64,000 nt of DNA, taken from assembly GCA_964016885.1 (NCBI GenBank), contig OZ024743.1, forward strand, positions 79,360,001 to 79,424,000, given 5' to 3'. Under the pieces are notes generated by a model. The model was given only the letters and a program-made list of their open reading frames with translations, did no database searches and was not told the origin of the DNA. The DNA comes from Eledone cirrhosa. Taxonomy: Eukaryota. A program made the position numbers and the translations under genes. Shown here one piece after another: positions 24,747 through 36,214 of this stretch (positions within the stretch are counted from its first letter, which is position 1; each line of letters starts with the position of its first letter).

Positions 24747-25415
24747 AACACTGGCGAGACCTTCAAGATAGTAAGGAATCATCTGTACTCTACCAACATG
24801 CTAAAATAGAACACAAGGGTAAATTAGAGAACATAGAAATAAAAATAGAATCTACACACAGAAAAGACGCAATGTTTAGACAAATTACAGAGGCAATAAA
24901 CATAAAAGAATTACAACCAAAATTAAATAGAAAATATGAGTGGAACAGCAACATCACAACTTACAATTAAGGCCAAAATGAAAACACACACACACATAGA
25001 ACAAACAACCAACCAGTAACATGTAAATAAACAAATAAATAAATGAACATAAACACACACAGACACCCGGATGTGGCGCATGCGCAGACTGAGCACACAA
25101 CACACACACAGAAACAAAATGGTGTAGGACAGAACAAAGGAGAGGCACAGAAACAAAGAAAGGAATCCCCAGTCACTGAAGAGGTCACAGAGTGTGTGAC
25201 GAAAGAACTATGACTATATATAAACAACTATCTGGTTGTGGAACCAACCAACCAACCAGAAATTTATAAATTTATAAATTTATTATAATAAATTGAAGTG
25301 AAAGCTACTGGTGCGTGTGTTTCTTATTGGCAACATGACCCTCCCAAAGTATAACAATATCGGTTTCAACACACGGTTTCAGATAAAGAATCTTGCTAAA
25401 CAAATTCAGAAACGA
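24742..25415 (+). mobile_element. Penelope-like element, short 5'-truncated copy
   Basis: 24742-25360 nearly identical to 26662-27291. Confidence 0.9.
25171..25215 (+). ncRNA. Minimal type I hammerhead motif in PLE pLTR
   Basis: AGTCA-CTGAAGA-GGTCACA-GAGTG-TGTGAC-GAAA-GAAC-TA-TGACT. Confidence 0.75.
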
Positions 25416-26461: not shown

Positions 26462-26890
26462 GTAAAAACACTTATTAGCAAGACATACCCTTTTCAAAGA
26501 CCCTCATGTATAGATAAGAAATGTATAACCTGTAAAATAAGCCCCCATATTAACTGTAAAACTAGAAATGTAGTGTATAGCATAAGATGTACTGAAGGAC
26601 AATGTAGAGATAAAAATATAGTGTACATAGGTGAGACAGCTCGTAGTGTAGGGGAATGGATAAATGAACACTGGCGAGACCTTCAAGATAGTAAAGAATC
26701 ATCTGTACTCTACCAACATGCTAAAATAGAACACAAGGGTAAATTAGAGAACATAGAAATAAAAATAGAATCTACACACAGAAAAGACGCAATGTTTAGA
26801 CAAATTACAGAGGCAATAAACATAAAAGAATTACAACCAAAATTAAATAGAAAATATGAGTGGAACAGCAACATCACAACTTACAATTAA
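26462..26890 (+). pseudogene. GIY-YIG endonuclease fragment of a PLE with Cys-rich linker
   Basis: CIDKKCITC, NVVYSIRC, VYIGETAR, EH, EAINI, LNRKYEW; W occupies the usual catalytic R position (GEWINEH). Confidence 0.85.
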
Positions 26891-29994: not shown

Positions 29995-30329
29995 TGTGTG
30001 CGGTACTGTATATGTGTAGTGTAGTGTGTGTGTGTGAGTGCAGTACTGTATATGTGTAGTGTAGTATGTGTGTGCGTGCGCGCAGTACTGTATATGTGTA
30101 GTGTAGTGTGTGTGTGTGTGTGTGTGCAGTACTGTATATGTGTAGTGTAGTGTGTGTGTGTGCAGTACTGTATATGTGTAGTGTAGTGTGTGTGTGTGCA
30201 GTACTGTATATGTGTAGTGTGTGTGTGTGTGTGTGTGTGCAGTACTGTATATGTGTAGTGTGTGTATGTGGTGCAGTACTGTATATGTGTAGTGTGTGTG
30301 TGTGTGCAGTACTGTATATGTGTAGTGTA

Positions 30330-30361
<32 letters not shown>

Positions 30362-30422
30362 AGTACTGTATATGTGTAGTGTAGGTGTGTGTGTGTGTGT
30401 GCACTACTATATATGTGTATTG

Positions 30423-30456
<34 letters not shown>

Positions 30457-30476
30457 AATACTGTATATGTGTAGTG

Positions 30477-30518
<42 letters not shown>

Positions 30519-30740
30519 ATGTATATGTGTAGTGTGTGTGTGTGTGCAGAACTGTATATGTGTAGTGTAGTATGTGTGTGTATGTGTGTACAGTACTGTA
30601 TATGTGTAGCGTAGTGTGTGTCTGTGGAGTACTGTATATGTGTAGTGTGTGTGTGTGCAGTACTGTATATGTGTAGTGTAGTGTGTGTGTGTGTGTGTGT
30701 GTGCAGTACTGTATATGTGTAGTATAGTGTGTGTGTGCAG
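29995..30740. repeat. Compound minisatellite: GCAGTACTGTATATGTGTAGT(GTAGT) plus (GT)n
   Basis: About 20 cores separated by variable GT runs. Confidence 0.92.
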
Positions 30741-31121
30741 TCACGTTCCTTTTCGCCTCCGTCGTCTGCTGCTGCCCTCTAATGTAACCTTATACCAATT
30801 TTACTCCTTCAATATCTTTGATGGACACCGATTATTTTCATGCCCTATCCCTCCGGGGCCGTTAACGGCGGCGAGAGTGCAATGAGATTCTCAAGAGGCA
30901 GACGTTAGTTGATGGCCAACACACGACCGAGTCCGTCAAAGAAATTCGGGTAACACCACATGACGGAATTGCTAGTAAAATGTAGAAAGTTCTCGTCAGA
31001 GTTGACCGCTGTACATTTCAACCGCAATATTTTATACAACCATACATCTCACTTATTGCACTTCCACTAATCAATTTTACCCCTCCCACACTGATGTCCT
31101 CTCTCTATTCACCTCCCCCTC

Positions 31122-31162
<41 letters not shown>

Positions 31163-31163
31163 T

Positions 31164-31230
<67 letters not shown>

Positions 31231-31321
31231 ATTTCAAGCCCCACCTCTCTCTCCACATTGCTACCAATGTATAACGTGATGCATATTACATTATCACATC
31301 ACTGTTTCTCACTGTATGTAT

Positions 31322-32673
31322 ATTATCTCTTTCTCTTAATTTCGAGTATATTTTTTGACCGGCCACCTTCCTGGTGGCAAGATTGTAAAAGAAAAGAAAT
31401 TGTCATCCCTTGAATTGCAAGAATGTTTTGCAAATTTTGAAGGTGCCAGCTATCGCAGCCATTTGTAGACAATGAATTAGGGAGCTGTGCTGTTTGTCCG
31501 CAAATCCAAGTTCAGTCATACTTTGGTCCAAGCGGGTTGGTATATAACCCGTAGCTCCAATAATGATGGGTATGAAGCTAAAGGTGTATCTTGGATACTG
31601 GATTTGTAAACTCCTCATCAATGGTCCGTAGATATCCTCCTACTTCTGTATTTTTCTGACAACGTTTACATCAAGTGGGTAGCTGATCTCCACAACAGAA
31701 CACGTTTTCAATGTGTGGTCCCAAACAAAAATATCAGGCCGGTTGTGCTTTAATTTGGTGGCAGTTTTTATTTTCAGGTTCCACCAGTATTCCTTAGTGC
31801 CATCTGTCTCAATATATTCCTCCTCGTTTGTTGTTAATTTTGTTTTCCGAAGTGCGTTCCAGATGGTTCTAGCTATCCCATCGTGTCTCATGGGGAGGTA
31901 GTAGCGAGATTACATTCTTTCGCAGCTGGCAACAATGTGACTTACATCTTCGATCTTTGTTTTACATAACCTGCATTTATTGTCAGCTGATGACCCTCCT
32001 CTTTTGTGCAGCAGATATTTGGTAGGGAGTTCTTGTTCCTGTATTGCATAGAGATATCCCTCAAGGTGTGATGTCATAAACTTGTAGGAACTCCATGCCA
32101 GGCTTTTTGAGTGGTTTATCCCCTCTATGGTTTGTGTTTTACGCCTCAAGTATCCATGCACAACTTTTTCTGTAAATTGGTCAATTTTTTCATCTTGTTT
32201 GAACATTGAATAGGATCCTCCGATTTCTCTGGGTGAGAGATTTATATCAGGCTTTATTTCATATCTCTCCTCCGGATCAGTGGCTATCCTAATGATATTT
32301 TTTTTTCATGCTCATAAACCTGGGCAAGATGGTTGCCAACCTTTTTCCTCTGTTGAAGATGTTGCTTCAGTGTTACTATCCGGGTCTCATATGATGTTAA
32401 TATTGATTTTAGACCCCGGCCACCTTCCTTGCGTGAGAAGTATAGCCTATCCACATCACCATTGATGTTAAAGTTCCCAGTAAAACTGAGAAGTTTGCGA
32501 GTTCTAACATCCATCTCACGTAGTTCTTGCAATGACCAGTTCAGCAGGCCAAATGTTGGCGTTAGAATTGGCACAGCATAAGTATTGTGGGCAATGTATT
32601 TGTTGTATGCTGACAGTTCTGATGACCATATTTTCTTTACTCTTCTGAGGTATTCAGTTCTGGTTCTCTCCTT
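31322..32673 (-). pseudogene. 5'-truncated, frameshifted R4/Dong-clade RLE LINE
   Basis: RLYFSRKEGGRGL, CRLC-H-C zinc knuckle, RHD, HNRPDI..VVEIS (PD-(D/E)XK), IPIIIGATG. Confidence 0.92.
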
Positions 32674-32721
32674 ATGTATGTATGTATGTATGTATGTATG
32701 TATGTATGTATGTATGTATGT

Positions 32722-33274
32722 ATGGTCGGGTCGTTGGCGACTAAACTGGCAACCCCACCAAGGTTTCTTGGTGAGGAGGGTGACTTTGGACATCCTGCAG
32801 GGCTAAAAACAAAACCTGTCAAAGGGCAAAGGAGCTCTTAAGAGTCAATGGCCATCCAAAATCACCGGGAGAGATGACCCCTTAGCCTTTGTCAAGGCAG
32901 AATTCTAGGAGAAGGAAAACTCTGATATAACACCTGAAACCCTGATGGTATCCAATGATGTTGACTTGTTCTTCTTTTTGGTAAATATCATCTTGGTTAA
33001 GAGAGTGGGACTGGCTTTGTGCAGTGCCTTTGCTCACTATAAAAGCTTCACGGCACAGGCATTGCTTTATATCTGGAGATCTCTCTGCACTTGTCATCAC
33101 GTGGTACCATGGGCCCAGCACTATGTGTCAATAATTGTCACAAGTGTAGTGTTTGTACCAGAGTTTTCAAGTCGCTGGCTGGACTAACAAGTCACACTCG
33201 TTCAGCGCATCGGTAAGGGTTCACCTACATATAAAGTAGTGGCCGTACTCGAAAACGAGTTGGCAGCCACCGTG
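32722..33274 (+). mobile_element. Non-autonomous retroposon family A in (TATG)n
   Basis: Near-identical to 29320-29875; (TATG)n on both sides. Confidence 0.85.
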
Positions 33275-33384
33275 TATGTATGTATGTATGTATGTATGTA
33301 TGTATGTATGTATGTATGTATGTATGTATGTATGTATGTATGTATGTATGTATATGTGTGTATGCATGTATATGTGTGTGTGTA

Positions 33385-33935
33385 TGTGTGTATGTTCTTC
33401 TGGTTTTATAATTTCACAAAGTTTTACCAATAGAGGGAGAGAGTCAGTTTCTAACATAGACACAAGACTCTCACATTGGAATTTACACATCAACTAGGTA
33501 GATATGCATGTATGCATGCATGTGTAGATATGGATGTTATTGTATGTGTGGATGTGTATCTTTTGAGTTGTATGTGTGCATGTGTATATGCTTTGCATCT
33601 GTACATGTGTATATGCAGTTATTAGATGCAAAATATTTGGAATGTTTTATATATTTTTACTGTTCCATTAATGGATTGTACTTGTAATTTCCTTACTAGT
33701 TGTTTTCTTTCTGTTCCTGTGAAGCCTAGCTTCTCAAGATTTGTATTGAGGCAGTTACTAACATACCCTAGTGCCCAATAATCACAGGCATAAATCTGAA
33801 GGTGTAATCAGGGTGGACTATCTGCAGATTTCTCATCAGTTCTGCATAAATATTCTCCTTTTCACTAATCTTTGATATTATATTGGCATCTGCTGGGCAG
33901 CTAATTTCCACTACTGTGCATGCTTTCTTCTCCCT
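33385..33935 (-). mobile_element. 3' fragment of a second R4/Dong-clade LINE family
   Basis: CTVVEISCPADANIISKISEKENIYAELMRNLQIVHPDYTFRFMPVIIG/LGYVSNCLNTNLEKLGF...GTVKIYKTF; ends ATAAAACCAGAAGAA then CATAC repeats. Confidence 0.85.
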
Positions 33936-34084
33936 ATGTATGTATGTATGTATGTATGTATGTATGTATGTATGTATGTATGTATGTATGTATGTATGTA
34001 TGTATGTATGTATGTATGTATGTATGTATGTGTGTGCGTATGTGTGTATGTATGTATGTGTGTATGTGTGTATGTATGTATGTA

Positions 34085-34353
34085 TGTTTTTCTGGTTTTA
34101 TAATTTCACGAATTTTTACCAATAGAGAGAGAGTCTGTTTCTAACATAGACACACCACTCTCTCATTGGAATTTACACAATATCAACTAGGTAGATTATG
34201 TATGCATGCATGTGTAGATATGTATGTTATTATATGTGTGTATGTGTATGTTTTGAGTTATATGTGTGCATGTGTATATGCTTTGTATCTGTACATGTGT
34301 ATATGCAGTTATTAGATTCAGAATTTTTGAAATGTTTTACATATTTTTACTGT
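34085..34353 (-). mobile_element. Shorter 3' fragment of the same R4/Dong family
   Basis: Diverged copy of 33390-33664; (TATG)n on both sides. Confidence 0.8.
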
Positions 34354-34380
34354 TGTATGTATGCATACATTACATACATA

Positions 34381-34918
34381 CATGATGGCTACAACGCGAT
34401 TTCGAGTAATGTTATCACTTGATACTTAAGTACGACGTGGCTTTTTAGTCCTGCTCGGGACTTGCCTGTGGTCAGCAATACCATTTACCGCAAAAAATGC
34501 CACATATCATGTGATGCCTATGCTTGAAGCTTTTTTAAGTGAGGAAAGGTTTTGCAGGGGGCCAATCCCACTTTCTGGACATCGAATGCATTTACCCAAA
34601 AAGAAGAACTGGTCTACATCATTGGCTGCAAATGAAGGTGCAAGTTTTATATCAGAGTGACCTTCTCCTAGAGAGATGTATTAATGGAGGCTAGGGGTCT
34701 CTCGCTACAAAAAAAAAAAAAAAAATAATAATGATATTCTTTATTGGATGGTTGTTGACTCACCTGAGTTTCTTCGCCCTTTAATGGGTTTTATTTTTCA
34801 GCTCGTAGGGTGTCCCAAATCCTCCTCCTCACCAAGCAATCTTGGTGGGGTTGCCAGTTTAGTCGCTGCCGGCCCAATCATGCAGAGGTTGTACTGGGTT
34901 ACATGTTAACAGTAGCGC
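34381..34918 (-). mobile_element. Non-autonomous retroposon family B
   Basis: Homologous to 6097-6597. Confidence 0.8.
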
Positions 34919-34994
34919 TGAAGAGTGGCTTCACTATAATACATACAGATATACATACGTACATATATATACATACAAACAAAAATAGACCCAC

Positions 34995-35060
<66 letters not shown>

Positions 35061-35114
35061 ATATATATATATATATACATATATATGTATATGTATATGT
35101 ATATATATATATAC

Positions 35115-35145
<31 letters not shown>

Positions 35146-35185
35146 CTGATGTTGGTTATATTATCAATAGTAGTATTATTGGGCA

Positions 35186-35313
35186 CCCACTGAGAATTAT
35201 AAAAGCCCACTTGAATATATATATCTGTTGATGGTATACAAGCTCCTACATAAATTGATATAATTTCACCCAAATTGTAGGAATCTTATAATGAAACGAG
35301 ACGTCCGTCTGGG
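35186..35313 (+). ncRNA. Type I hammerhead motif with 1-nt core deletion
   Basis: CCCA-CTGA_GA-ATTATAAAA...TCTTATAAT-GAAA-CGAGACGTCCG-TC-TGGG. Confidence 0.65.
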
Positions 35314-35873
35314 AAGAGATATATTCGATATGTCTCATATAAAATAATACAGCCAATTTTCCGCACAATACAATTAGTTAGCACCCCGAACGTTTAATTA
35401 GGAATTTACTCAGTTATGTGCTAATGTTTGTTGAGCGAGTTGGAATTTAACCGGGGTATCGCTAAAAGCTTTCTCCGATAATCTATTTATTTATTTACTC
35501 TTGGTGCAACAGATATGAAATTCCCGATATAAGGTTTGACTGTCTTTGTTTATTTTTTTATATATGAATATTGATTGTTTCTTGTATCTCATTCTGTTAT
35601 TTTGCCCGAGAAAATATCTATGTGTGTACACACATAGATATTTTTTCAAGTTCCAATTGAGTTCTAGCACGTGGCCTGAATTCCTTTTAGAATTCATTGT
35701 CCTGCGCATGTATTGTTTTTTTTTTGGCGGTAATATACTTCCTCATTTTTGAATCAGTTTGAGTATTTCTTTAGAACTGCTGGAGTAGCAACCTAACAGA
35801 TACCTCAGGCACTGATGATGATTACGCTAAATACTGATGTTGATTAGATTATCAATAGTAGTATTGTTGGGCA

Positions 35874-36000
35874 CCCACTGAAGAATTATAAGAGCCCACT
35901 TGAATATATATCTGTTGATGGTATACAAGCTCCTACATAAATTGGTATAATTTCACCCAAATTGTAGGAATCTTATAATGAAACGAGACGTCCGCCTGGG
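35874..36000 (+). ncRNA. Type I hammerhead motif with intact core but GCC triplet
   Basis: CCCA-CTGAAGA-ATTATAAGA...TCTTATAAT-GAAA-CGAGACGTCCG-CC-TGGG. Confidence 0.7.
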
Positions 36001-36167
36001 AAGAGATATATTCGATATGTCTCATATGAAATAATACAGCCAATTTTCCGCACAATACAATTAGTTAGCACCCCGAACGTTTAATTAGGAATTTACTCAG
36101 TTATGTGCTAATGTTTGTTGAGTGAGTTGGAATTTGGCCGGAGTATCGCTAAAAGCTTTCTCCGATA

Positions 36168-36211
<44 letters not shown>

Positions 36212-36214
<3 letters not shown>

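Follow-up and report, generated by a model that had tools for sequence, protein, structure and literature searches.

We consider it quite probable that a family of non-coding repeats in the genome of Eledone cirrhosa (assembly GCA_964016885.1), built of tandem units of approximately 690 nucleotides with one predicted type I hammerhead ribozyme in each, produces RNA that cleaves itself in vivo and that a Penelope-like reverse transcriptase copies into tracts of (TA)n, and that the member from which the family was recognized is a 5'-truncated copy of 1.5 units that later decayed. That member occupies 1.03 kb of the window (the whole 64,000-nucleotide stretch of contig OZ024743.1 that was analysed) and consists of 1.5 head-to-tail copies of the unit. 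As a dead copy, this locus has little importance of its own; the real finding is the family.

The first-pass annotation of the window had described a non-coding, retrozyme-like element in which two direct repeats, each with a hammerhead and with complementary lesions in the two, enclose a central region, and in which the predicted cleavage positions lie 687 nucleotides apart. This description was borne out. The repeats (35140-35483 and 35828-36170) align over 344 columns with 95.6% identity at an offset of 687-688, the predicted cuts fall at 35309 and 35996 with a spacing of 687 nt, and the region between the repeats contains no stop-to-stop frame longer than 83 amino acids. The interval from cut to cut (Table 1) is predicted to be strongly structured (z of -6.2 against 20 shuffles), and the two units share five variants found only at this locus. 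Because both flanks consist of (TA)n, a target-site duplication is not callable.

Table 1. Coordinates of the retrozyme-like element and its parts, numbered from the first letter of the window
Feature	Position	Strand	Basis
First unit, 5'-truncated, covering unit positions ~348-687 (the apparent '5' LTR')	35143..35483	+	Repeat alignment and family layout
Full 687-nt unit, ending at the fixed 3' end of the family	35484..36170	+	Family layout
Cut-to-cut monomer interval, 687 nt	35310..35996	+	Counterpart present as a free-standing piece in L211
174 nt from cut to 3' end	35997..36170	+	Found alone as the commonest short copy class
TATTTA-rich stretch at unit junction; putative start of reverse transcription at a nicked (TA)n target	35484..35497	+	TATTTA(TA)n follows the 3' ends of the family; priming inferred
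(TA)n target, left part	34996..35145	.	Flank sequence
(TA)n target, right part	36171..36215	.	Flank sequence
Hammerhead copy 1: one-base core deletion (35190-35195), GTC intact, predicted cut after 35309	35186..35313	+	
Hammerhead copy 2: core CTGAAGA (35878-35884), GCC (35994-35996)	35874..36000	+	
Copy 2 stem II around the 77-nt two-hairpin insert	35885-35893/35971-35979	+	

Several further features were observed elsewhere in the window. Directly after the retrozyme, within the TA run, lies a MITE-like element (36212-36468) with 105-nt inverted arms (97%), which has 18 matches among the inspected loci and sub-threshold Rfam matches to MIR8670 and mir-548; it is followed by a minus-strand minimal hammerhead-like motif with a U3-A8 core and a palindromic CCGG (approximately 36715-36753), and by an array (37655-62024, with other sequence around 45-48 kb) in which a 98-bp unit with a variable (TA)n spacer is repeated about 250 times. 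On the other side, a second partial duplication (33273-33664 and 33957-34354, 90% identical and ~685 bp apart) matches a dispersed repeat, and no hammerhead was found in it by a motif scan. Two identical minimal hammerhead-like motifs, 1920 bp apart at 25176 and 27096, enclose a GIY-YIG-like remnant (26471-26881), an arrangement that is probably a partial tandem of a Penelope-like element (PLE).

Both hammerheads of the window element have a type I layout: stem I pairs CCCA with TGGG, stem II is 9 bp long and encloses a 77-nt insert with two hairpins, and the segment GAAAC and a 3-bp stem III complete the layout, the loop of stem III containing the palindrome GACGTC. An Rfam scan of positions 30000-42000 gave no hammerhead match at E<=1, probably on account of the stem II insert, and returned only sub-threshold microRNA matches on microsatellites and on the MITE-like element. 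Among 92 family hammerheads collected with a loose pattern, which itself favours better-kept copies, 66 are fully intact; the core reads CTGATGA in 60 and CTGAAGA in 28, and the cleavage site is GTC in 81 and GCC in 5. A type I hammerhead in every unit is in this sense a feature of the family that the window locus, with both of its copies damaged, has lost. Activity is abolished by GCC at the cleavage site. The core deletion of copy 1 is found in one of 39 aligned family cores (duplicate loci L008 and L010 left out), and loci with two damaged hammerheads are expected at a frequency of ~8%. Since most hammerheads of the family are intact, the two lesions in the window look like decay; the idea of lesions that complement each other by design is unsupported.

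The structure is maintained across the family. In 75 distinct sequences, 97.2% of cells pair, one stem II pair occurs as A-U in 38 and as G-C in 33, and both hairpins of the insert display further changes that preserve pairing; this covariation amounts to few independent events, a compensatory change inherited by one subfamily being a single event. Alignment A1, made up of the two window copies and of 76 of 87 hammerheads that had been preselected for their core motifs, was not used to assess intactness because of that preselection. Relative to the minimum-energy structure, the hammerhead fold costs 4.8 kcal/mol in an intact copy (L004), 2.4 kcal/mol in copy 2 and 7.2 kcal/mol in copy 1. The further suggestion, that the core of copy 2 might cut the site of copy 1, survived in part: stem III duplexes between two copies (-16.1 kcal/mol, and -14.8 for the window pair) make dimeric cleavage possible in silico, but such a rescue in trans would give one cut at most, so that the locus is predicted to release no monomer.

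A search of the 3.0-Gb genome yielded 3156 candidates, the best 40 of which were scored, and at each of the 30 loci inspected a partial unit is followed head-to-tail by a full unit of ~690-700 nt, at some loci with another full unit between the two. The apparent LTRs are consequently the overlap of a 1.5-mer, and the layout of repeat, core and repeat seen initially is a 5'-truncated unit followed by a full one. The family has one fixed 3' end, which continues into TATTTA(TA)n; an exact pattern for this end has 585 matches genome-wide, and a control has none. By this measure the family numbers at least 585 copies. Their 5' ends vary from copy to copy. The comparison of relatives that the first-pass annotation had proposed recovered a shared 3' end, but neither a fixed layout nor, at 214 family loci, a continuation into a PLE reading frame. 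In a sample consisting of the first 90 of the 585 matches, taken regardless of length (89 were aligned, with lengths from 28 to over 2000 nt; L146 gave no alignment), 57 of 89 copies cross the predicted cut and 15 of 89 are longer than one unit. Tandem structure was established at 65 non-redundant loci, the longest array being that of L264 with 3.6 units. Partial units always lie on the 5' side, and inverted 5' segments were seen by eye in at least L117 and L154. The family thereby displays integration traits of the PLE type, namely 5' truncation, partial tandems, inverted 5' copies and a microsatellite target.

Indirect evidence of cleavage comes from the 5' ends of these copies, those that start at the predicted cut being likely to record ribozyme cleavage in vivo and copying by a Penelope-like retrotransposon. 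In unit coordinates the predicted cut lies at position 514, which leaves 174 nt to the 3' end. Among 71 copies at risk, drawn from the 89 that had been chosen solely by their 3' junction, 14 end at positions 514-523 where 1.1 are expected from background (P about 2e-11), which is the highest count in any 10-nt window; a longer TA-like stretch used as a control (417-430) draws 2 of 50 ends (Fisher P 0.014). Nine of the 14 ends lie at 523, at an ATATAT able to pair with the target, so that trimming to microhomology is likely and microhomology shapes the peak. Starts exactly at the cut were found in 35 of 44 pattern matches with a base other than C before the site, a count made by eye in which the first T may belong to the flank; the other nine are point mutants, and at a control position three bases upstream one of 21 matches starts at the site. 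At 25 distinct loci among the first 100 of 320 matches, counted by eye with a pattern that excludes 523, nine starts fall at 514-515, ten at 516-522 and six at 502-512. Read depth rises toward the 3' end in three sequencing runs (of unspecified kind, from one sample that is possibly the assembly source), an observation that was not counted.

The units of a tandem locus resemble one another more than they resemble units elsewhere. Across the 65 loci, tandem units share 22 locus-only variants, compared with 0.67 expected with shuffled partners, and subfamily columns agree within loci in 750 of 808 cases (93%, compared with 53% expected). Units of one locus differ at 3.4% of sites, evenly between units, and no column separates 5' from 3' units at P<0.03. 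These shared private variants fit a single molecule copied more than once, and also local duplication or homogeneous source arrays. Within-locus disagreement at several subfamily columns was found in L003 and L248.

The cut-to-cut monomer of ~690 nt that intact relatives had been predicted to release is present once in the sequences sampled, at locus L211 (G000:C1:337331984-337332655). This locus holds a 672-nt monomer that extends from one cut to the next, lacks the usual 3' end of the family, and is 89% identical to the window monomer. On both sides it is flanked by the 3' region of a Neptune-like PLE family (exemplified by L127) whose reading frames carry a reverse transcriptase and then GIY-YIG; these frames also have a C-x4-C-x2-C linker, which is described as a Neptune/Nematis trait in the available text of PMC8557442. 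Before the insertion point stands a motif that combines a U3-A8 core with a 4-bp stem II and a palindromic CCGG, and the point coincides with the predicted cut of that motif; U3-A8 minimal hammerhead variants have been described (PMC4209133). The empty PLE site has 2302 matches, and no base has been lost or duplicated in L211 relative to it. Three of the four joined ends are accordingly fixed by predicted cuts in two RNAs, because the PLE cut supplies both PLE ends. Chance DNA insertion is an implausible origin, and the locus may instead have arisen from cut RNAs that were ligated, or from template jumping between them. In three sequencing runs the empty site is the best-supported joint, and no contig bridging the L211 junctions is among the matches listed. 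L211 is also a single locus, and two observations count against this reading: the PLE subfamily concerned has GCAA in place of GAAA in its hammerhead motif, and none of the first 100 of the 2302 PLE copies starts at this site. A search for additional chimeras, which was blind to those followed by T, found that of nine copies with a base other than T after the cut triplet only L211 ends there. The tips of both stem II insert hairpins are missing at L211:1930-1990, with their stems kept. A bolder reading, to which we give somewhat less than even odds, is that the genome keeps the retrozyme RNA life cycle in the form of copies stopped at the cut, copies made by several rounds on a single circle, and a mixed circle of retrozyme and Neptune-like PLE ligated at both hammerhead cuts.

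Reading frames with reverse transcriptase plus GIY-YIG exist in this genome, and the L127-type PLE family likewise ends in (TA)n. The tails of the retrozyme and of the PLE show a 13-nt similarity that was attributed to chance, 114 of 1000 shuffles being as good in a small sample of PLE families. A search with GIY-YIG recovered PLE open frames of 938, 844 and 1096 amino acids with reverse transcriptase at L121 (G000:C1:145869500), L122 (C5:100715500) and L123 (C1:83811000), respectively. Several Neptune-like families carry U3-A8 minimal hammerheads, with GCAA for GAAA in one subfamily, and at G000:C1:62704833-62704884 two PLE copies lie back to back, joined exactly at the palindromic CCGG of the hammerhead motif.

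In the mechanism that we propose, a tandem transcript would be cut at each GUC to give cut-to-cut monomers, which would probably be ligated into circles by a host ligase, as is reported for RtcB and retrozyme monomers in PMC7229834. A PLE endonuclease would nick a (TA)n tract, and reverse transcription would begin 174 nt downstream of the cut, always at the same AU-rich site; a PLE reverse transcriptase that initiates internally has been described (PMC11167929). On an open (cut) RNA the enzyme would halt at the cut and leave a copy of ~174 nt, and on a ligated or uncut RNA it would pass the site and might exceed one unit, yielding partial tandems and their LTR-like overlap; the window locus would have decayed afterwards through a separate lesion in each hammerhead. 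From genomic sequence we infer that the units are transcribed, that their RNA is cleaved and then joined by a host ligase, that the AU-rich junction is where priming takes place, and that the helper is Neptune-like. Counting against the scheme, an anole PLE was found in vitro to use uncut RNA, with cleavage not needed (PMC11167929).

A possible but less likely account retains the cut and the PLE helper and dispenses with the covalent circle, the reverse transcriptase either jumping between linear cut RNAs or reading partly cut linear multimers, so that L211 would represent two template jumps instead of two ligations. It would be favoured by a possible second-pass peak of stops at the cut (4 of 24, compared with 1.1 expected, P 0.03; L257 was left out as a duplicate of L247), which falls to 3 of 23 (P 0.10) when L211 is removed; by the status of uncut RNA as the main in vitro substrate in that same report; and by L018, where GCC occurs in both units, a state that counts against a self-cut circle since such a circle should not yield it. 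Linear copying alone, however, would shorten arrays in every round, the unit junctions are seamless with one insertion seen (L024), and among 21 further copies whose start falls exactly at the cut, none was seen to run into a second unit (~2.6 expected by hand, P about 0.06). Local DNA duplication or gene conversion of a SINE-like, non-autonomous PLE derivative, with the hammerhead a relic and the short-copy peak due to a hairpin, to microhomology or to a transcription start, would also produce shared private variants, and could claim both the hairpin that starts just past the cut and the near identity of two of the three units at L008/L014 (1 difference in 276). We consider this unlikely, for it leaves unexplained the starts exactly at the cut bond, the end of the L211 monomer at the same bond, the covarying stem II, and the partial units that always lie 5'.

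Derivation of the unit from PLE coding elements is less probable again. The first-pass annotation had allowed that the element might be an ordinary truncated PLE; that alternative is unsupported because no copy at 214 family loci runs on into a reading frame, although the pattern of integration is PLE-like. A related reading, in which the unit is the 3' remnant (pLTR) of an autonomous PLE with full-length copies that were left unsampled, can draw on the truncated 5' ends, the partial tandems, the inverted 5' pieces and the insertion into (TA)n, all of them traits of PLEs (PMC8557442), and on genome searches that score only the best candidates. It is nonetheless improbable, given that the tail of one unit meets the head of the next in 64 exact matches, that no PLE frame is continuous with the unit at 214 family loci (PLE protein matches there sit in separate flanking sequence), and that among 50 GIY-YIG loci the unit occurs in only one, as a separate short insertion, with no other shared sequence; a strict hammerhead scan of those 50 loci missed minimal U3-A8 motifs that were seen by eye. 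The plant-type LTR retrozyme with two mutually complementing hammerheads, as originally proposed, is matched in size (repeats of 300-400 bp and a centre of 300-600 bp; PMC4918200) and forms a hybrid stem III that is stable in silico, but we give it almost no credence: the hammerhead is of type I, not type III, the lesions are rare in the family, TG...CA ends and a polypurine tract are absent, and the architecture is refuted by variable 5' boundaries and by arrays of up to 3.6 units.

The position of the family among known systems, the reports concerned being cited from their accessible portions, can be summarized as follows. Metazoan non-LTR retrozymes (Cervera and de la Pena 2020, PMC7229834; Li et al. 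2026, bioRxiv 10.64898/2026.07.22.740005) likewise consist of non-coding tandem units with one type I hammerhead each, low GC content, no primer-binding site (PBS) or polypurine tract (PPT), and a structured monomer, in genomes that also contain PLEs; a unit of 690 nt is unexceptional, since the units reported by Li et al. span 51-972 bp. The family differs from them in its 9-bp stem II with a 77-nt branched insert, where theirs is a 4-bp helix with a small loop, in consisting mostly of dispersed, 5'-truncated (TA)n insertions with one fixed 3' end, and in 5' ends that mark the cut and a monomer within a PLE hammerhead site, neither of which was found described for them in those portions. On each feature testable in DNA except PLE homology, the family fits the animal non-LTR retrozymes. 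Plant LTR retrozymes (Cervera et al. 2016, PMC4918200) resemble it in overall size and in an RNA of ~700 nt from cut to cut, but have type III hammerheads, true LTRs, a PBS and a PPT, none of which the family has: its open stem is stem I, and inspection by eye found no PBS, PPT or LTR ends at the element boundaries. They also have 4-bp target-site duplications, which the (TA)n flanks would mask here. Neptune-clade PLEs and non-autonomous PLEs such as MRC1 (PMC8557442, PMC4209133, PMC11167929) resemble it in their LTR-like partial tandems, their truncated 5' ends and inverted 5' pieces, their microsatellite targets and a type I hammerhead near the 3' end; unlike them, the family has no reading frame, no detectable similarity to the PLEs sampled, and a hammerhead larger than the minimal PLE motifs. 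The origin that we infer for L211 also has a counterpart in U6/LINE-1 chimeras (Moldovan et al. 2019, PMC6789731), in which an end with a cyclic phosphate is joined to a 5'-OH before retrotransposition; L211 differs in having two junctions, both at predicted ribozyme cuts and between two mobile elements, with ligation being the presumed step.

That PLE machinery mobilizes animal retrozymes by way of cut and circularized RNA has so far been a proposal. Cervera and de la Pena (2014) wrote of an 'absence of in vivo evidence' for PLE hammerheads, and Frangieh et al. (2024), in the text available, report no RNA reads ending at the cut and cleavage that is unneeded in vitro. No report of such 5'-end peaks or of retrozyme-PLE chimeras was found in a literature search conducted mostly outside subscription papers, and the supplements of Li et al. 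may list similar families. What appears to be new here is the expanded stem II, together with a candidate genomic record of cleavage. Because the expanded stem escapes Rfam, such families may be undercounted; the hazard of 5' ends at a predicted cut, and the search for cut-to-cut chimeras, constitute a test that is applicable to any genome with hammerhead repeats. In this family the cut appears to be preserved with single-base precision in the DNA copies themselves, and through one locus the monomer is linked to a particular PLE family. If the mixed circle is real, that chimera would name the helper PLE family, and hammerhead ends would be interchangeable connectors for the recombination of unrelated retroelement RNAs.
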